64,000 nucleotides of DNA, taken from an uncultured Verrucomicrobiae bacterium (GTDB taxonomy: Bacteria > Verrucomicrobiota > Verrucomicrobiia > Limisphaerales > UBA11358). The notes under the pieces were generated by a model. It made no database searches, had not been told where the DNA came from, and saw only the letters and a list, made by a program, of their open reading frames with translations. Position 1 is the first letter of the stretch, and every line of letters begins with the position of its first letter. Shown here one piece after another: positions 1 to 6,572 of the stretch. Position numbers and translations under genes: made by a program. The stretch is from NCBI GenBank assembly GCA_963764175.1, contig CAVXRE010000013.1:193768-257767 (forward strand), read 5' to 3'.

Positions 1-111
1 AGGCGTAAGCGTGACCGTCAATAATCAGCAACCGATCCACAAATTCTTCCGGGAGTTCACATCCGACCCGCCGGTTCATTCAGTCCCCGCCACCCGACGA
101 CTGCGTGCCGG

Positions 112-756
112 TCATTTCGTCATCGTCGCCGGGCCGGGTTGAAAGGTCTGGCCTTCGACCGCGGGCTGCGGCGGGATTGCATTTTGCGCAAACGGCAATT
201 CGTCATCCGAATGCACGCGGTTGCCGGCCGGGTCCACGATGGTGGCCGTGACAAAAATCATCAGATTCTTCTTGGTGGCGCTCTTGCTCTGGCTCTGAAA
301 CAGACGGCCCATCAACGGGATGTCACCCAGAACAGGCACCTTGTCCTTGGTGCTCAGAACCTGCGAGGTGATCAATCCGCCAATGACGACGGTTTGGTTG
401 TCCCAGATGTCAACGGTGGTAATGACTTGCCGGATGGTAAAATCCGGCAGGACCACCGGCAGCTGCACGACGTTCAGGCCGCTGGTGACATTGGGAATGG
501 ACGGCGGAGAGTCGTAACCATTGAAATCGGTCAGCGACGGTATCAAGGTGAGATTGATCGTGCAACCATCGGACAAAACGTAGGGAACGACGTCGAGGAT
601 GGGGCCGATTTCGACCTGTTGATAATCAACCGTGATGGCCGAAACTCCCGGCGAGAAAACGTTGTTGCCCTGGGCACGAACCATATTGACGGCGGCCAAA
701 CTGGCGCACAGCAACACCGCCAGTTTGTAAATTCCGCTTGATTTGAAAGTTTTCAT
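112..756 (-). CDS. Secretin, C-terminal portion (second ORF of a split PilQ/GspD-type secretin) with its own Sec signal peptide
   Basis: 214-aa ORF. The N-terminus MKTFKSSGIYKLAVLLCASLAAVNMVRA|QG looks like a cleavable signal peptide. The rest matches the distal part of a secretin domain (GPILDVVPYVLSDG, VVIGGL, KVPVLGDIPLMGRLF, KNLMIFVTATIV). Confidence 0.8.
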   Translation of the reverse strand: MKTFKSSGIYKLAVLLCASLAAVNMVRAQGNNVFSPGVSAITVDYQQVEIGPILDVVPYVLSDGCTINLTLIPSLTDFNGYDSPPSIPNVTSGLNVVQLPVVLPDFTIRQVITTVDIWDNQTVVIGGLITSQVLSTKDKVPVLGDIPLMGRLFQSQSKSATKKNLMIFVTATIVDPAGNRVHSDDELPFAQNAIPPQPAVEGQTFQPGPATMTK

Positions 757-776
757 ATCTTCTGGTTATTAAAAAA

Positions 777-3032
777 TTATGGAGTTGTGCCCGTTCCCCC
801 GGTCGTGGCGGCGGCCGCACCCTGCTGGAAGTTAAAGCCGGTGATGACGTTGATGATCTGTGTTGCCCGCATCTGCGTCTGTCGTCCGCTGATGGTAACC
901 ACTTCCGGTTCAGCGAGTGTTTCCACTCCGCTGCGCTGCGACAGGGCCTGAATCGCGACACGGAAGTTGGGGTCCGTCAAGATGCCCGTGACCGTTGCCA
1001 GTGTCGGAGCACCGAGGGCATTGCGAAGACCAGAGGTCAGATTTTGATCATTGGCTGAAGGTGCAATCTGGCTGATCGCCGTGTTGCCTGGGAAAGTGCC
1101 AAGCGGATTGGCGGCTGAAACCGGCACATTGAGCGAAGGGGCGCTGCCGCCGTTGGCGACGACCGTGCCATTGACGAAATTCCCCAAATACCAGTCAAAA
1201 CCAAGGGCATTCTGGTCTGTTTGTTGCACTTCGATGAACCGGGATTTGATGTGGACTTGCGGAGCCACCTGATCCAAGGCCTGGATGGCGCGTTCAATGG
1301 TGTCCAAGTCCGACAGTGTTGCCCTCACAAACAACAAACCCAAACGGTCATTAAAAAACACTGATTTGCCCGCCGGAACGTTCATATTGACTCCCAGCGT
1401 GGTGAAGAAGTTTTTGGCCGCCAAGCTGACGTCGGAGGCCAGATTGATCGTGGTGATGGAGCGCAAACCACCCTGACCGCCGGTAACACCACCTCCAGCA
1501 CCGCCCGCGCCCGTGGCACCGAGAGGATTGGCTGCGCCTTGACTGCTGCCACCGCCACCGCCGCCGCCACCGCCGCTGCCGCCTGTGTTGCGAAGACCGC
1601 CCGCGCCGGGGAACGCATTCACCACACCGATGACCGCGCCGTTATTCTGCTGACCGCCACCACCGCCGCCACCACCGCCACCACCACCGCCGCCGCTGCC
1701 ACCGCCGCTGTTGTTAACCGAGCCGAAGCTGGAAGAACTGACGCTTTCCAAGCCCGCATAAAACGTGTTTGGATCCACTTTGAATGTCCGCATGTAAAGT
1801 TGGGGGGTCTCCGCGCCTTTGCTGGAAAAGACAATGCCGTAATCCAGTATCGAGTATTTGATGGGATGATCGGCCACCATCACAATCGCATCCAGCACGT
1901 CCGCCAGGCGCACGTCGGTCAAACTCAATTTAATCACAACCTGATCTACCGGCGTTACTTCACCACCAGCGCCAGTGGCGGGCGCCTGGGCTTCCGGCAA
2001 GCCTGTGGCTGGATTCACGACCGTCGGCACGCCTGCCCCTCCGGCACCAGTCGGTGTCAATGCAGCCATCTCTGTGGAAGTGTCCGGGTTGGGATTGATC
2101 AGGAAGTTTATTCCCCTTTTTTCGGGATCGCGCAACTTGGCCTGTTCGCTTAATTGCCGGATGACTTCGCTCAAAGGAAGGCCGTCGTAAGAAACATTTT
2201 CCAGGCGGATGCGGGCAAGTTTGTTGTCAATGACGTCACGGCCGGGGCCGGTGTGGGTCAAATTGGTATCAGCATAAGGATTAGGCACCGGCAGGGGATT
2301 GCGCGGCGTTGGCTGCACCCACTGTTTTTCAACCTGCTCCATGCGCGACTGGGTGTCCACCGTATGCTGGAGAGCATTGCGGTTGTACCGCGCTTGTTTG
2401 ATCAGGTTTAAGTAATAAAAGGCGCCGATGTTGTCCGGGTCCAATTTCAGCGCTTCATCCAATTTGACCTCGGCTTCATCCAATTTGCCCATTTCGTACA
2501 GCAGCTTCCCGTCGCGCACGAGCGTGCCCGCGTCGGTTTTGTCATTCACGAGGTAGGGAACTTGTTGCAAAGTCGCCTGGTCGGGCATCTTACCCTTCAT
2601 GGCGGCAAGCATTTCATCGTTCTGTTTTTTGAAGGAGAGCGCTGCGGCGTTTTGCGGATCCACCTTCAACACCTGGATGACTTGCGTGTCTGCATCAAGA
2701 AATTTGCCCTGGCTTTGCGCCTGGCGGGCGAGCGTCAGACGGGTGGAGGCCAGTCCCGAAATGGTTTGCGCCGTCTCAACGTCGATGCCCGAACCGATGG
2801 CCTGCACCAGCCCGTAGGCTTCCTGGTAAAGCTTGGCCGCGCCGGCCAAATCTCCCCGCGCGGCGGCACTTTTGGCGTCCACCAGCTTCTGGCGCAGAAC
2901 GATGGTGTTGGCCTGCCGCAATACCGCCTCGGTGACAGCTATGTCCTGGGGGCTACTGCTCTGGGCCTGTGACGTGACGGCGGAAACCGCCAGCAAAATT
3001 AAACCGAGCGAGAGGGATACTGCCTTTCTCAT
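777..3032 (-). CDS. Secretin, N-terminal portion: signal peptide, TPR-like region, secretin N-domains with poly-Gly insert, first strands of the secretin domain
   Basis: 751-aa ORF. It has a signal peptide (LILLAVSAVTSQA), helical TPR-like repeats and N-domain-like segments (IRLENVSYDGLPLSEVIRQL; VHIKSRFIEVQQTD). The C-terminus (AIQALSQRSGVETLAEPEVVTISGRQTQM) is the typical start of a secretin domain, and the ORF stops 20 nt before the next ORF. Confidence 0.8.
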   Translation of the reverse strand: MRKAVSLSLGLILLAVSAVTSQAQSSSPQDIAVTEAVLRQANTIVLRQKLVDAKSAAARGDLAGAAKLYQEAYGLVQAIGSGIDVETAQTISGLASTRLTLARQAQSQGKFLDADTQVIQVLKVDPQNAAALSFKKQNDEMLAAMKGKMPDQATLQQVPYLVNDKTDAGTLVRDGKLLYEMGKLDEAEVKLDEALKLDPDNIGAFYYLNLIKQARYNRNALQHTVDTQSRMEQVEKQWVQPTPRNPLPVPNPYADTNLTHTGPGRDVIDNKLARIRLENVSYDGLPLSEVIRQLSEQAKLRDPEKRGINFLINPNPDTSTEMAALTPTGAGGAGVPTVVNPATGLPEAQAPATGAGGEVTPVDQVVIKLSLTDVRLADVLDAIVMVADHPIKYSILDYGIVFSSKGAETPQLYMRTFKVDPNTFYAGLESVSSSSFGSVNNSGGGSGGGGGGGGGGGGGGQQNNGAVIGVVNAFPGAGGLRNTGGSGGGGGGGGGSSQGAANPLGATGAGGAGGGVTGGQGGLRSITTINLASDVSLAAKNFFTTLGVNMNVPAGKSVFFNDRLGLLFVRATLSDLDTIERAIQALDQVAPQVHIKSRFIEVQQTDQNALGFDWYLGNFVNGTVVANGGSAPSLNVPVSAANPLGTFPGNTAISQIAPSANDQNLTSGLRNALGAPTLATVTGILTDPNFRVAIQALSQRSGVETLAEPEVVTISGRQTQMRATQIINVITGFNFQQGAAAATTGGTGTTP

Positions 3033-3087: not shown

Positions 3088-3870
3088 TCAGGGCGTATAT
3101 CGCAAAGTCCATTTTTTTTGGTTTGACTGGGCAGACAATACCACTTCGTTCGAGTTGATGTCAACGATTGTGTAATCGTCCCCTGCAAACCTGAGTTGAC
3201 CGCCGATGCGCTGTTCCGACCAGCTTCTGCTTTCGGGATCATACTTCAAATCCGCCATGTAGGCGTCCACCCTGCGAAAGGGTTTGTCTTTCGACAAACT
3301 AATCGACTGGCCCGTGTCGGCGAGAACCAAAACCAGAGAATCGGGATTCTCAGGCGGGCCTTGGACCTGGACAAGGGTAAAAATATCTTTCTTGGCATCG
3401 TCCATGGAGACAAAGCGCTGCTGCTTGCGGCGCATGGCAGGATACGCCGCCGCCTGACGTTCCACGCTGATGACGTAGCGTGCGCCAAAATTCGTATCAA
3501 CTGAATCCAAGGTCAGCTCCGTATAAAGCGGCGTGATGCCGGTGACGACAGCGGCTTGCGGGCCCGTTCCGGTCGCTTTGATCATTATGTTGTCCATCGT
3601 CCTCTGCCATTCAACCGGATTGAACAGTTTGTTCGTGGTGTCCAAATCCAGGTCGTAGGGCGATTGCAAGCGTTCGACGACGTTGCTTTGCTCCGTCAAG
3701 TCAAGATTTGTCAGTGCCACGACATGGCCGCTGATAATGCCCTCGCCGATTTCCCTGACCTTTTCCTGCTCGTTGGGAATGACGAACGCCATGAACACGA
3801 GTGCCCCGACCAAGCCCACCAATACAACGCTGAGCAGGATTTTCTCGTAGTTTTTCTTGATGAAATCCAT
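3088..3870 (-). CDS. Pilus-locus membrane protein, single N-terminal TM helix, function unknown (Amuc_1099-like position)
   Basis: 260-aa ORF tightly packed between the secretin and the Amuc_1100-like gene. It has an N-terminal TM (ILLSVVLVGLVGALVFMAFVI) and no catalytic motifs that I recognise. Confidence 0.6.
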   Translation of the reverse strand: MDFIKKNYEKILLSVVLVGLVGALVFMAFVIPNEQEKVREIGEGIISGHVVALTNLDLTEQSNVVERLQSPYDLDLDTTNKLFNPVEWQRTMDNIMIKATGTGPQAAVVTGITPLYTELTLDSVDTNFGARYVISVERQAAAYPAMRRKQQRFVSMDDAKKDIFTLVQVQGPPENPDSLVLVLADTGQSISLSKDKPFRRVDAYMADLKYDPESRSWSEQRIGGQLRFAGDDYTIVDINSNEVVLSAQSNQKKWTLRYTP

Positions 3871-3874
3871 GCGT

Positions 3875-4810
3875 TTAGTTTTTCGGCAACATTTTCACAA
3901 TCACAACCTCAATGGTTACGCTCAACAACTGTTCCTGCAACACCGTCTGCAACCCGCCCCTGCCGGGCATTGCCCCCGCCACGGGAGCGGGTGGAGGCGG
4001 CGGCATTCCCCTGCCCCTGCCCCTGCCTCCTCCCATGTCCGGCGAGACTTCCATCGGCACCGCTCCTGCCGGCTGGACGCTGATGTTTTTGACGATGAAT
4101 CCGTATGGCGACGAGGCAAAACCGGCGAGCGTCTTCGCTATTTCCGGTCCGAAGGCGCGGAATGTAATCGTGTAAGGTGTCAGCGCCGTCTGCCCGTTGG
4201 TCACGGAATTGTCGGCGAGATAATCCGTTTGCGGCCCGCTCAAGTCATCATCCGACACGCGGACGCGCTGGATGCCGTCCAACTGGTTGACGCCCGCCGC
4301 GAAAAGAATTTCCGAAATGGTTTCCACCTCGCCGAGTTGCACCGCCAGCGCGCCCAGGCTGCCGGGCGCGAATTTCACCCGCGAGCGCTGCGCTTCAAAC
4401 GAAAAGCTGTATTGGGGAAGGACACCAACGTTTGCATTTGTCGCATCGCGCTGCAACTGGTCAATCGTCCGGTGCAGCGCGTCCGCAAATGATTCGTTCG
4501 AAATCGGGCCGTTGGTCGGATTGGGAATTGGCGTAATCGGCTGGAAATAATTTTGCGCCTGGTTGATCCAGTCGCGGACCCGGGCCTCCTGCTGTTTGGC
4601 GGCTTCGATGTTGTTGACCTTGTCGTTGCCCGGTGAAGGGTGCTGGTTGGCCAGTTCCCGCAACGTGCTGTAAACCTCGTTCAATTTGTCAAACGCCACC
4701 GAGTTGTCCTTCCAGCTTATGTAATCGTAAAAGCCCGCCGCGCCGAGCATTCCCAGGGCCAGGACGCCGCCAATCACAAACAACAGGTTTCGCTTGATCC
4801 AAATCATCAT
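3875..4810 (-). CDS. Amuc_1100-like pilus-associated membrane protein (PilO-like slot)
   Basis: The ORF track extends to 4918. I prefer the ATG at 4810 (MMIWIKRNLLFVIGGVLALGML), 1 nt after the pilM stop. Architecture: TM anchor, helical region, C-terminal domain followed by a Gly/Arg/Pro-rich stretch (GGGRGRGRGMPPPPPAP). This is the architecture I recall for Akkermansia Amuc_1100. Needs BLAST. Confidence 0.55.
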   Translation of the reverse strand: MMIWIKRNLLFVIGGVLALGMLGAAGFYDYISWKDNSVAFDKLNEVYSTLRELANQHPSPGNDKVNNIEAAKQQEARVRDWINQAQNYFQPITPIPNPTNGPISNESFADALHRTIDQLQRDATNANVGVLPQYSFSFEAQRSRVKFAPGSLGALAVQLGEVETISEILFAAGVNQLDGIQRVRVSDDDLSGPQTDYLADNSVTNGQTALTPYTITFRAFGPEIAKTLAGFASSPYGFIVKNISVQPAGAVPMEVSPDMGGGRGRGRGMPPPPPAPVAGAMPGRGGLQTVLQEQLLSVTIEVVIVKMLPKN

Positions 4811-4811
4811 A

Positions 4812-6572
4812 TTACAATTGCAGTGGATTTTGCGGCGCGACAATGATGCTGAATGTGAAGGTGCTGTTGGCGTCCACCGGCGAGATTTGAGCGGAAGACT
4901 GCACCGACTTGGGATCAAAAACCGGGCTGGCTTTTAATTCACGCTCGACGGCGTAAACAACTTCATTGTTTGCCGCGGAATCAATGCCCGACAAATCCAC
5001 CGCGCGGCAAATCAAGGTGATGGGCTGGGCCGCGCCAGACGCTGCTCCGTTGTCGCTGGGATTCGATGTGAACGTTGCGTTGCCGCCCGGATTCGGCTTC
5101 GTCGTCATTTGTTCGATCCAAACACCGGCATCCATTTTCGGATTTTGCGCGACATACTTTTTCTTGACGTCGGCCTCGGCCCGGATGAGAGCGCGACGCA
5201 GTTCGGCCAGCACGTCACCCCAATAATACCTCTCTTCCATCCATGTCGTGGTTTGCTTCGCCTCGTTGCGGGTCGCCAGGAGTTTTGAATAGGCACTCCT
5301 GAACTGGTCCGTCCTTGCTTGCAACTGTCGCACCTTCGGCTCCAGGTTTGCAATTTCGTTCTGTTTGGACCCCGCCAATTGTTGGAACAAAAATCCCACC
5401 GCGAATGCCACCCCCACCAGACTCAGCACCGTGCAAAAGAAATAGGGCTTCTTTTCGTTGAACGCCCGCCAGCGCAACGTGCTCTCCGGCATCAAATTCA
5501 TTTCCACCGGACAATGCGCCAGGTTCCGCAAGCCCAGGCCCACGACTTCGCCGAGTGAATGCGCCACGCGCGCGAGCTCCTCCAGGTTCACCGACGGATC
5601 AATTTGCACGTTGCGGAAGGGATTGAAGTATTCGACCGGCACGTTCAGTTTCTCCGCAAAAAACTGCGCCGTGTAAGGCATGATGGACGCGCCGCCGGAC
5701 AGGAACAGGCGCTGCGGCGCCGACCCGGCTTGCTGCCCCCGGTAAAACTGTATCGTCTGGTTGACCTGGATGTGCAGCTTGGTCATGAACTGCCGCGCGA
5801 TTTTTGAAATGGCCGCCTGATTCGGATTTTCCGGCTCCTCATACGCGCCGCCCAGGCTCACAAAGCCCTCGGCGACCTTGATTTGCTCGGCGACGCCAAA
5901 CTTCAACTTGGCCTCGTTCGCAAAATCCTGCGTGATGGCATTGGCCCCCAGATTGATGCTGCGGGAAAAAACCTTTCCTTTTTCGAAGAACAACAGGTTG
6001 CTCGTCTTGGCGCCGATGTCCAACAGCATCGTGCAATCCTCCAGGTCGCCGTAGTTGTAACGGAAGGCGTTGCAAAGCGCCGCCGGCGAGGCGTCGCAAA
6101 GGTTCAGCCGCAGCTTGGCCTGCTCGGCCACACGGAACAAGCCCTCAACCACGTCGGACTTGATGGCCACCAGCAGCACTTCAAGCTCGCCGCTGGGCGC
6201 CGAGCCGAGAATCTGATAATCCCACACCACCTCTGCCAGCGGGAACGGCACGTTTTGCTGCGCCTCGTACTGGATGATTTGCGTCACCTTGCCCGCGTCC
6301 ACCGGCGGCAGTTTGACAAATTTGGAAAACACATGGAAGCCCGGCGCGCAAACGTTGGTGTTTTTGGACTGGAAGTTTTTTTCAACCAGCACTTCCTGAA
6401 GCGCCTTGAGAATGGTTGCTTCGCGGGTGGTTTCCTGCGCGCCTTCGGGGCCGAGCGGCTTGATGGCAAAGCCTTTGAGACGCAATCCACCGGCTTCGTT
6501 GACTTCAAACTCGCCGAGCTTAAGGCTGCCCGCCCCAAAATCAATCGCCAGGAATGATTTGATATTAAGCAT
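4812..6572 (-). CDS. pilM: Type IV pilus assembly protein PilM (actin/FtsA-like ATPase fold) fused to a PilN-like TM/coiled-coil tail
   Basis: 586 aa. N-terminal actin-like motifs (AIDFGAGSLKLG, LLDIGAKTSNL, LSGGAS) are followed by a TM helix (YFFCTVLSLVGVAFAVGFLF) and a periplasmic tail. Confidence 0.8.
   Translation of the reverse strand: MLNIKSFLAIDFGAGSLKLGEFEVNEAGGLRLKGFAIKPLGPEGAQETTREATILKALQEVLVEKNFQSKNTNVCAPGFHVFSKFVKLPPVDAGKVTQIIQYEAQQNVPFPLAEVVWDYQILGSAPSGELEVLLVAIKSDVVEGLFRVAEQAKLRLNLCDASPAALCNAFRYNYGDLEDCTMLLDIGAKTSNLLFFEKGKVFSRSINLGANAITQDFANEAKLKFGVAEQIKVAEGFVSLGGAYEEPENPNQAAISKIARQFMTKLHIQVNQTIQFYRGQQAGSAPQRLFLSGGASIMPYTAQFFAEKLNVPVEYFNPFRNVQIDPSVNLEELARVAHSLGEVVGLGLRNLAHCPVEMNLMPESTLRWRAFNEKKPYFFCTVLSLVGVAFAVGFLFQQLAGSKQNEIANLEPKVRQLQARTDQFRSAYSKLLATRNEAKQTTTWMEERYYWGDVLAELRRALIRAEADVKKKYVAQNPKMDAGVWIEQMTTKPNPGGNATFTSNPSDNGAASGAAQPITLICRAVDLSGIDSAANNEVVYAVERELKASPVFDPKSVQSSAQISPVDANSTFTFSIIVAPQNPLQL

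Follow-up and report, generated by a model that had tools for sequence, protein, structure and literature searches.

A Verrucomicrobiota secretin gene split inside its barrel domain into two adjacent cistrons

To our knowledge, every secretin protomer studied so far carries its barrel domain on one chain. Secretin folding, insertion and gate opening are still under study. Secretins that draw on more than one gene have already been described. In rhizobial Rhc type III systems, the secretin is encoded by two, sometimes three genes (rhcC1/rhcC2), a distinguishing feature of the family with unknown functional significance (PMC3574062, PMC3973906). Here, as in the RhcC1 (NolW) and RhcC2 (Y4xJ) pair and the HrcIIC1/HrcIIC2 pair of P. 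syringae, secretin function comes from multiple genes. In profile searches, RhcC2 of NGR234 (475 aa) matches the full PF00263 domain (positions 1–169 of 169, E=3e-45) and NolW (234 aa) matches N0 and Secretin_N only. Since RhcC2 keeps a complete secretin domain, the Rhc split falls between domains. The NGR234 rhcC1 and rhcC2 genes are about 11.6 kb apart and differently regulated, whereas the two cistrons described here are 20 nt apart and are broken at PF00263 position 46/47, approximately; the locus lacks the Rhc arrangement of N-domains split from a self-contained secretin domain on separated genes.

In the mitochondrial, T2SS-derived system of Naegleria and other protists, an ancestral secretin gene was split into GspD and separate GspDN1–3 or GspDL, and the pieces are proposed to interact (PMC8134430). 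Unlike the present case, these are eukaryotic genes, their N-domains are separated from a one-chain C-terminal secretin domain and bacterial Sec-type signal peptides are absent. An engineered system offers a mechanistic analogue for assembly in trans from two non-covalently linked barrel fragments: when E. coli OmpA is co-expressed as two fragments, strands pair in the periplasm and the native barrel is assembled in vivo (PMC8987393). Split OmpA is an artificial, monomeric 8-strand barrel that is inserted by BAM and cut in a loop between barrel strands, whereas the present split is natural, conserved in many species, located in a multimeric double-walled secretin and cut at a gate hairpin.

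PilQ of Akkermansia muciniphila (Amuc_1098) shares with the split locus both its domain order (signal peptide, TPR, a putative N-domain in the split locus, secretin) and a neighbourhood with PilM and an Amuc_1100-family gene. In A. muciniphila no outer-membrane protein is more abundant, and it is for this unsplit homologue alone that an outer-membrane location is demonstrated, by immunogold labelling (PMC4960237). However, Amuc_1098 is a single 907-residue chain encoded by one ORF in the Akkermansia locus (L059), whereas our locus is broken at the tip of Gate 1 and its downstream half has its own signal peptide; identity between the two is only about 50–55% over the C-terminal part. A literature search on split, bipartite or heteromeric secretins retrieved the Rhc case alone, and we found no description in the literature of a secretin split inside the barrel domain. 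The initial annotation of this DNA knew of no characterized secretin built from two separately exported polypeptides. In view of RhcC1/RhcC2 and mitochondrial GspD this was too strong; what survived our searches is narrower, namely that split secretin genes are known, whereas a split within the barrel domain is apparently undescribed.

Two cistrons and their surroundings

The window, as we call the whole 64,000-nt stretch that was analysed, encodes the N-terminal half of a secretin in ORF A (777..3032, minus strand, 751 aa; ORF list and translation). Its predicted layout starts with a signal peptide and a TPR region, followed by a Gly-rich linker and an N3-like domain; the first strands of the outer barrel with the lip region, and then strand 1 of Gate 1, complete it. 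Read from sequence alone, the signal peptide (MRKAVSLSLGLILLAVSAVTSQA↓Q, arrow at the predicted cleavage site; 2964..3032, minus strand) shows a hydrophobic core behind a positive n-region, together with an S-x-A site. Pfam matches cover the TPR region, and where an N-domain is expected there is a weak match to PF03958 (Secretin_N) at residues 551–592 (E=0.001; 19.7 bits, under the 28.2-bit cut-off). At this place, the AF2 model of a fused homologue, P0175, has a small alpha/beta unit (strand 531–545, helix 547–560, strand 566–578). Most homologues of A are 720–780 aa long.

ORF B (112..756, minus strand, 214 aa) begins with MKTFKSSGIYKLAVLLCASLAAVNMVRA↓QGNNVFSPGVSAITVDYQQVEIGPILDVVPYV (…VRA↓Q). 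Its predicted signal peptide (MKTFKSSGIYKLAVLLCASLAAVNMVRA↓Q; 673..756, minus strand) conforms to a leader pattern found across the split loci: in 46 of 46, B opens with a short leader built around a hydrophobic core, and the predicted cleavage site lies between Ala (−1) and Gln (+1). Scoring by script of 39 loci gave leader lengths of 22–41 aa (median 29) and n-regions whose net charge lies between 0 and +6. The reading of the mature part of ORF B with its stop codon (112..672, minus strand) is supported by PF00263, NCBIfam, an alignment to GspD and the model of the fused homologue. Among the best 120 homologues of B, whose identities reach down to 68%, every one is 197–236 aa long.

Neither ORF holds a complete secretin domain, which is reached only by A and B combined. 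ORF B matches positions 47–169 of the 169 in Pfam Secretin PF00263 (E=1.5e-27), and a Pfam profile search of the window's ORF A alone gave no PF00263 match. In A halves, NCBIfam and pairwise alignments are the sole means by which the first 46 or so PF00263 positions are detected, apart from a weak trace in one relative, L073. The NCBIfam matches of ORF A are to Amuc_1098_fam (best stretch 15–381), GspD (263–466 of 600) and PilQ (136–300), and those of ORF B to GspD (475–591 of 600), MshL (161–290) and Amuc_1098_fam (660–804 of 805).

Between the cistrons, the TAA stop of ORF A (777–779) and a 20-nt AT-rich spacer (757–776, TTTTTTAATAACCAGAAGAT) together occupy 757..779 on the minus strand, and ORF A ends ...SGRQTQMRATQIINVITGFNFQQGAAAATTGGTGTTP-TAA. 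GC content falls to 27% at 720–779, against 55–68% on either side, and the mean over 46 split loci is 33% in the spacer against 59% in the flanks. Spacers among relatives are 14–32 nt long with a base composition of 38% A and 13% G. We found no terminator-like or promoter-like site between the cistrons in the spacer. A Shine–Dalgarno-like motif occurs in only 8 of the 46 spacers, so the case for initiation at B rests solely on AT-richness and conservation.

The sequence-based claims of two ORFs, each with a Sec-type signal peptide, and of a 20-nt AT-rich spacer in an AT-rich junction had both been made in the initial annotation; coordinates, translations and leader pattern agree with the first, and the GC content of the window and of the 46 loci bears out the second. 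It had also anticipated complementary partial secretin matches, which the PF00263 and NCBIfam profiles returned, and had named a complete domain in ORF B as grounds for dismissing the split, whereas the PF00263 match of ORF B starts at position 47.

Upstream of ORF A, the genes of the same cluster span 3088..6572 on the minus strand: a PilM-like gene (4812–6572, minus strand; PilM_2 match, E=1.3e-35), a 347-aa ORF (3875–4918, minus strand) and a 260-aa ORF (3088–3870, minus strand). A Pfam search of the 260-aa and 347-aa ORFs gave no match. In a syntenic locus, L001, the order is PilM, an Amuc_1100-family protein (PF28028), a 261-aa protein, the A half, the B half and a 5′–3′ exonuclease, so that the neighbourhood includes PilM, from the window, and an Amuc_1100-type gene, by way of this synteny. 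The Amuc_1098 family (NF042912) is the top-scoring NCBIfam family for both halves, with 209.6 bits for A and 130.6 bits for B; both scores lie far under the equivalog cut-off of 750 bits, and we therefore treat the locus as a related subfamily and not as an Amuc_1098 equivalog. On these sequence comparisons, the locus is classed as a PilQ/Amuc_1098-type secretin of a type IV pilus-like cluster from a Verrucomicrobiota lineage (subdivision 3/Limisphaerales-like).

The break at the tip of the Gate-1 hairpin

The last predicted beta-strand of ORF A (RATQIINVITGFNFQ; 825..869, minus strand) corresponds to strand 1 of the Gate-1 hairpin in the alignment to V. cholerae GspD (5wq8), where it is aligned with '...FIVG453EEVPVITGS' and the break falls just past G453. 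This residue is the gate hinge of V. cholerae GspD (PMC7545093). The Gly/Ala/Thr-rich C-terminal tail that follows (QGAAAATTGGTGTTP; 780..824, minus strand) would be the first part of the broken tip loop of Gate 1; a tally of 39 split loci gives Pro or Gln as the final residue of A in 37. On the other side of the break, ORF B aligns to GspD 'DRKEVGIKLKVVPQI'. Its predicted Gate-1 strand 2 (AITVDYQQVEIGPILDVVPYV; 577–639, minus strand) includes a second hinge glycine, Gly51, and the rest of mature ORF B would complete the inner barrel and provide Gate 2, the final strands of the outer barrel along with an amphipathic helical loop, and a C-terminal tail.

The AF2 model of P0175 gives a similar picture. 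It matches the solved secretins 6w6m, 5zdh, 5wq7 and others with E of 1e-10 to 1e-12, and in it the break lies where strands 698–709 and 733–753 form a long hairpin, at a tip modelled with low confidence; strand 698–709 is the counterpart of the last strand of ORF A, and the loop equivalent to the broken tip, 710–732, has a pLDDT of about 52. The part equivalent to B includes strands 733–753, 759–774 and 797–832, a helix at 843–846 and a strand at 847–867. Our first assumption, a break in the extracellular beta-lip, is ruled out by the GspD G453 alignment together with the order reported for f1 pIV, in which the lip (199–234) precedes Gate 1 (G267–G297) and then Gate 2; the lip lies wholly within A. 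Alignment and model thus locate the break within the barrel domain, at the Gate-1 hairpin tip, and not at a domain boundary, which refines the position within the barrel-forming domain given in the initial annotation.

Conservation, selection and history of the split

Among species-level genomes, 44 of the 78 loci that were classified share the break, and its residue position with respect to a conserved VVN(Q/N)/NTF motif does not vary. The split secretin occurs in a large group of Verrucomicrobiota from soil and peat. The A and B genes are neighbours, always in one order, at each locus examined. Purifying selection acts on both halves: in most of 16 pairs, dN/dS is 0.11–0.22 for A and 0.08–0.25 for mature B, and on this account the locus looks like a natural two-chain version of a secretin. 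The B leader, at 0.24–1.2, evolves fast in sequence with its physico-chemical features kept; a raised dN/dS is usual for signal peptides.

Unsplit relatives have an unbroken loop, '...GSSGTT/VVNPG...', at the site (stroke) of the insert in split forms, and they join A and B precisely end to end; on comparison, they have no counterpart of the B leader. These relatives, Akkermansia PilQ (Amuc_1098) among them, show the split to be equivalent to an insert of about 115 nt within a Gly/Thr-rich loop; the insert carries a stop, a spacer, a start and a signal peptide. The small insertion proposed initially stands as regards stop, spacer and start, but the whole signal peptide is new and not its n-region alone. 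The orthologue comparison suggested at that stage also favours the split, as close orthologues are split at the same place and single-ORF forms are confined to distant relatives and a few nested lineages.

In trees, fused forms are nested among split ones, so the break is not indispensable and may be selectively neutral. Fitch parsimony on split and fused states requires 8 changes, and the C-terminal and full-length trees conflict over the placement of L038, which suggests recombination. The trees leave the number and direction of split and fusion events unsettled; some lineages have apparently re-fused. A separate origin of each split group is less likely, since all groups are cut at one position before VVN/VVQ, including the distant ones L051, L055, L057, P0243, P0244 and P0265.

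A further arrangement was seen in two relatives, L053 and L073, in which A runs beyond the break point into a Peptidase_S74 domain, followed by a stop and then by B with its signal peptide. We take Peptidase_S74 to be the self-cleaving chaperone domain of the phage-tailspike type. A search for further secretin–S74 fusions gave mainly stand-alone S74 'tail fiber domain' proteins and one fragment, P0391. On a tentative reading, the variant suggests selection for the free end that A has at the gate tip, an end created by a stop codon in most lineages and possibly by autoproteolysis in L053 and L073.

A probable two-chain protomer and its alternatives

We consider it likely that the locus encodes a functional, naturally split PilQ/Amuc_1098-type secretin in which two chains form one protomer. 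The A and B cistrons would be transcribed together and translated separately, with initiation in a region made up of the A/T-rich, G-poor spacer plus the opening codons of B, which are AT-rich. Each product would cross the inner membrane via Sec on its own cleavable signal peptide, and in the periplasm or outer membrane one A and one B, at 1:1, would make up the equivalent of one protomer of other secretins. To this, A would contribute the TPR region and N-domains, the lip along with the first two strands of the outer barrel, and Gate-1 strand 1. From B would come Gate-1 strand 2, what remains of the inner barrel, Gate 2, and the final strands of the outer barrel together with the amphipathic helical loop. 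Beta-strand pairing would hold the two together, and the double-walled channel would be a ring of about 12–15 A/B pairs. Both free ends, the C-terminus of A and the N-terminus of B, would then sit in the middle of the closed gate. An insert of about 115 nt in the flexible, Gly/Thr-rich loop of the gate tip would have created the break, which was then kept across most of a large clade.

Could the two ORFs instead be the remains of a single secretin gene, broken recently by mutation or by an assembly or indel error, with ORF B non-functional? Such errors do occur in this gene family, as the frameshift-like junctions of two relatives from Nanopore-based bins (L012 and L050) indicate. Against this, the same break with an intact B leader recurs in the 44 species-level genomes, dN/dS is about 0.1–0.2 on both halves and the insert codes for a signal-peptide pattern that is conserved and has no counterpart in unsplit genes. 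Three contig records, two from ENA assemblies and one from an NCBI assembly, agree with the junction DNA over 1756 nt with 0 mismatches, although one of the three may be the window's own source, and the varied spacers and leaders exclude one systematic error common to all split-clade assemblies. Conservation and selection effectively refute an artefact or pseudogene, which we regard as extremely improbable. We hold it very improbable as well that the split exists at the DNA level only and that programmed recoding (stop read-through, frameshifting or ribosomal bypass) fuses A and B. The cistrons are merely 14–32 nt apart, and the spacer length is 2 modulo 3 in the window and its three closest relatives; over 39 loci, however, spacers fall in all three frame classes (2, 0 and 1 in 22, 11 and 6 loci, respectively), and on this ground we rejected recoding or frameshifting. 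In addition, A ends in the efficient TAA stop in 36 of the 39, a fused product would place a hydrophobic leader of 22–41 residues within the gate loop, and the signal-peptidase site (Ala −1/Gln +1), sensible only for an N-terminal signal peptide, is kept in every locus.

That A and B share no protomer is unlikely. In such a case B might form a minimal-secretin channel by itself, with A as a separate TPR protein of periplasmic or pilotin-like character, or the roles might be exchanged. The N-terminal TPR region of A does resemble pilotin- or BamD-like modules, and RhcC1/RhcC2 and mitochondrial GspD/GspDN do part periplasmic domains from a self-sufficient barrel. By contrast, the first 46 secretin-profile positions are missing from B, as are the first outer-barrel strands, the lip and one strand of Gate 1, and A keeps those very barrel elements under purifying selection. 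The unvarying adjacency and order of the genes, and their exact end-to-end fusion in unsplit relatives, also argue for a shared protomer.

Whether the break in this two-chain secretin is used, and not merely tolerated, is a more tentative matter. It is possible, if doubtful, that a two-chain Gate 1 opens more easily or wider, or that the pore forms only once the halves meet in the outer membrane. In the latter case, the split would guard against toxic insertion into the inner membrane, which is known for secretins.

A natural and widespread two-chain form, cut at the gate tip, would mean that a secretin protomer can assemble in trans. The break would also mark a permissive site for engineering, for example of split reporters, gate insertions or controlled assembly. 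For annotation, hundreds of entries from Verrucomicrobiota MAGs, listed as a 'TPR repeat protein' and a short 'general secretion pathway protein D', would be the halves of one machine, and automated pipelines could count such halves as truncated or missing secretins. Finally, the family offers a handle on two questions: whether gating needs covalent continuity of Gate 1, and whether barrel formation can be made conditional on two components.

Anatomy and position of the split

On the minus strand of the window, ORF A (3032 to 777; 751 aa, ending in TAA) is followed by ORF B (756 to 112; 214 aa), with the TAA and 20 nt between them (TTTTTTAATAACCAGAAGAT), as the initial annotation described. 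In Pfam, ORF B covers only positions 47–169 of the 169 in the Secretin profile (E=1.5e-27) and is thus not a complete secretin domain, and ORF A gives TPR repeats and a weak Secretin_N match; this partial coverage agrees with the split proposed about 45 residues into the domain. The NCBIfam models show the two ORFs to be complementary, the GspD model matching ORF A at 263–466 and ORF B at 475–591, and the Amuc_1098-family model (805 positions) matching ORF A best at 15–381 and ORF B at 660–804. The junction is AT-rich, as had been noted, with 27% GC at 720–779 against 55–68% in the flanks. Two long runs of glycine (…SGGGSGGGGGGGGGGGGGGQQ… and …GGSGGGGGGGGGSS…; window ~1480–1700, residues ~445–520) separate the TPR/N-terminal region of ORF A from an N3-like domain; the equivalent segment of a fused homologue, 426–506, is predicted to be disordered (pLDDT < 50).

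About ten homologues of ORF A at 60–65% identity are 910–976 aa long, carry PF00263 and are unsplit relatives. Where one of these, P0175, reads '...GVNFQQGAASAIGAQGSSGTT VVNPGTAAITFIQQQVETGPILDVVPYV', the window reads '...GFNFQQGAAAATTGGTGTTP', stop, spacer, 'M...VRA/QGNNVFSPGVSAITVDYQQVEIGPILDVVPYV'. The split thus amounts to an insertion of ~115 nt into a Gly/Ser/Thr/Asn-rich loop, which first adds one or two residues and a stop codon, then the spacer, and lastly a start codon with a complete signal peptide. The small insertion first proposed, with its stop, spacer and start, therefore holds, except that the new part is the entire signal peptide and not its n-region alone.

In the f1 secretin pIV, the chain runs from an outer strand through the lip (199–234) to Gate 1, the inner-gate hairpin, and then to Gate 2; Gate 1 has hinges at G267 and G297 and a disordered tip at 275–289 (PMC8563730). 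Pairwise, the end of A ('...QMRA TQIINVITGF') aligns onto Vibrio cholerae GspD '...SFIVG453 EEVPVITGS', in which G453 is a proposed gate hinge (PMC7545093), and B ('QQVEIGPILDVVPYV') aligns onto 'DRKEVGIKLKVVPQI', which contains the second hinge glycine. The AlphaFold2 model of P0175 (mean pLDDT 73; secretin part mostly > 80) finds its matches among solved secretin structures: V. cholerae PilQ (1e-12), GspD, BfpB, InvG and pIV. In this model, strands 698–709 and 733–753 flank a low-confidence loop (710–732, pLDDT ~52), and the residues equivalent to the break, T725 and V726, lie in its middle. The pIV chain order and the G453 alignment rule out a break in the extracellular lip; with the model, the evidence places the break at the Gate-1 hairpin tip, inside the barrel-forming domain as initially claimed. 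The N-domains, the first outer-barrel strands and the lip thus belong to A together with one strand of the gate; the other gate strand, what remains of the inner barrel including Gate 2, and the final outer strands with the amphipathic helix belong to B. Neither half alone could form the barrel.

In this family the Gate-1 hinge glycine G453 of GspD is matched by alanine (A residues 722–725, 'RATQ', window 860–869, 'QMRA/TQ'), and fused genes read 'QMRATQ' or 'QMRSTR' there; this pairing comes from a pairwise alignment that could be off by one or two residues. A GspD G453A mutant was reported to be trapped partly open (PMC7545093).

Conservation and proposed origin of the split

An artefact or a pseudogene is ruled out by identical junctions in three contig records, by the breadth of the split and by selection on both halves. 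A protein identical to ORF B is present on at least ten contigs; for three of these records (from two ENA assemblies and an NCBI assembly, one of the three possibly being the window's own source), a 1756-nt comparison spanning the junction gives 0 mismatches. The best 120 B homologues in the database, down to 68% identity, are all 197–236 aa, and A homologues are mostly 720–780 aa. A 4.6-Mb contig has the matching order PilM, Amuc_1100-family protein, 261-aa protein, A (763 aa), B and 5′-3′ exonuclease. When orthologous loci were compared at one genome per species (80 loci, 78 classifiable), 44 were split and 34 read as single ORFs, and the split also occurs in cluster representatives with only 50–57% identity (P0243, P0244, P0265). 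Nei–Gojobori dN/dS for most of 16 pairs was 0.11–0.22 for A and 0.08–0.25 for mature B, indicating that both halves are maintained by selection; two pairs are outliers, probably because they have diverged very little or because one stretch is misaligned or frameshifted. The values for the leader, the signal-peptide segment of B (0.24–1.2), fit the usual picture for signal peptides, in which the physico-chemical pattern is kept and the sequence is not.

The 34 single-ORF calls include two loci from Nanopore-based bins (MFD04780 and MFD09286) that look split or frameshifted and misread by an indel. In L012 (~4380–4640) the A stop is lost and the frame runs through the spacer and signal-peptide segment; L050 (~4150–4500) is out of frame with an internal stop. 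These frameshift-like junctions are probably indel errors and not biology.

In every split locus, a short leader opens B; its core is hydrophobic, and residues −1 and +1 are Ala and Gln. Among the 39 scored by script, leaders are 22–41 residues long (median 29) with a net n-region charge of 0 to +6; the A stop is TAA in 36 of 39, and the last residue of A is Pro or Gln in 37 of 39. Spacers span 14–32 nt, with lengths modulo 3 of 2, 0 and 1 in 22, 11 and 6 loci, and this spread over all three frame classes excludes a conserved frameshift or bypass joining A and B. The region from which B is initiated is rich in A (38%) and poor in G (13%), and a Shine–Dalgarno-like motif occurs in only 8 of 46 spacers.

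Downstream of B, on the same strand, lies a 5′-3′ exonuclease gene (window 1–114, minus strand), with Pfam domains 5_3_exonuc_N and 5_3_exonuc in syntenic loci. Its start overlaps the B stop by 4 nt (ATGA) in locus L001, and ATGA is also present in the window at 112–115; in window-identical contigs, gene callers put the start 33–72 nt further downstream.

In a full-length neighbour-joining tree (64 loci, 888 columns, 100 bootstraps), 44 tips form a main clade with 100% support; 38 of these genes are split and 6 are fused, the fused ones all lying within one 18-tip subclade (93% support). Split genes are also found among fused relatives outside the main clade: L053 and L057 in the full-length tree, and L051, L055 and L073 in a tree of the C-terminal region; Fitch parsimony requires 8 changes. 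The nested fused genes form one group in the C-terminal-region tree, whereas in the full-length tree the fused L038 pairs with the split L023 (99%), a conflict that points to recombination within the gene. All split forms, including P0243, P0244 and P0265, are cut at one place, just before a conserved VVN/VVQ/NTF motif. This tentatively favours a single old origin, with later re-fusions and recombination, over many independent gains.

Two divergent split relatives have no A stop in the gate loop: A (L053:1822–4362 and L073:124–1029, both plus strand) continues after '...GGGTTT/SDRNVK...' into a Peptidase_S74 domain (Pfam E=6.6e-12 and 4.9e-10, above cut-off), a coiled coil and a stop, and after 16–30 nt comes B with its signal peptide (L053:4393–5067; L073:1103–1681). 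In phage endosialidase tailspikes, Peptidase_S74 is an intramolecular chaperone that cleaves itself. A search for more secretin–S74 fusions returned only one further fragment, P0391; the remaining matches, from Verrucomicrobiota and Planctomycetes, were S74 proteins standing alone. The top-scoring protein in the representative-library search, P0241 (1901 aa), has a BlaR1/M56-like membrane N-terminus and then several tandem copies of an N-domain-plus-secretin module (5 matched stretches), which may reflect a chimeric assembly or a genuine fusion of several secretins.

Proposed assembly and relation to known split secretins

A promoter-like site lies upstream of ORF A at 3164–3135. No terminator-like or promoter-like site was found in the spacer, so the two cistrons are probably co-transcribed. 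Translation of B has to start on its own. Both products would be exported by Sec and cut by signal peptidase I, A at SQA/Q and B at VRA/Q, then pair strand to strand as the equivalent of one protomer, and these equivalents would oligomerise into a ring. By analogy, the closest experimental support comes from OmpA made as two fragments, whose strands pair in the periplasm and assemble a native barrel (PMC8987393); in addition, Amuc_1098, the unsplit homologue from Akkermansia muciniphila, is an abundant outer-membrane protein (PMC4960237). We consider it likely that the A and B chains co-assemble into a working secretin. The cut may simply be tolerated, since the gate loop is long, of low complexity and predicted to be flexible, and the split may be functionally neutral.

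The initial view that no two-polypeptide secretin is known is too strong. SctC is encoded as rhcC1 (nolW) and rhcC2 in rhizobial Rhc type III systems and the related Pseudomonas syringae T3SS-2, a split whose 'functional significance [is] not known' (PMC3574062, PMC3973906), and in mitochondrial T2SS relics GspD is separate from GspDN proteins (PMC8134430). Those splits fall between domains and leave a self-sufficient barrel subunit: on pNGR234a, N0 and Secretin_N are the only domains of NolW (234 aa), PF00263 is complete in RhcC2 (475 aa; 1–169/169, E=3e-45), and the two genes are ~11.6 kb apart. In the window, by contrast, the barrel/gate domain itself is broken, the cistrons are adjacent and the signal peptide is newly acquired. 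RhcC2 (Y4xJ; L084:27670–29097, minus strand; with its neighbours, pNGR234a, NC_000914 96093–98800) has a Tad/Cpa-type domain make-up (T2SS-T3SS_pil_N, BON, complete Secretin), and its gene adjoins genes for a CpaD-family lipoprotein and a response regulator (ttsI in the literature). The Rhc 'split secretin' may thus be an SctC N-terminal fragment paired with a Cpa-like secretin and not a simple fission.

Searches of freely accessible full texts found no account of a split inside the barrel/gate domain. We class the window pair as a PilQ/Amuc_1098-like secretin split within a single domain. This split is real, widespread, not remarked on before and open to experiment, although it varies the structure of a machine that is itself well known.
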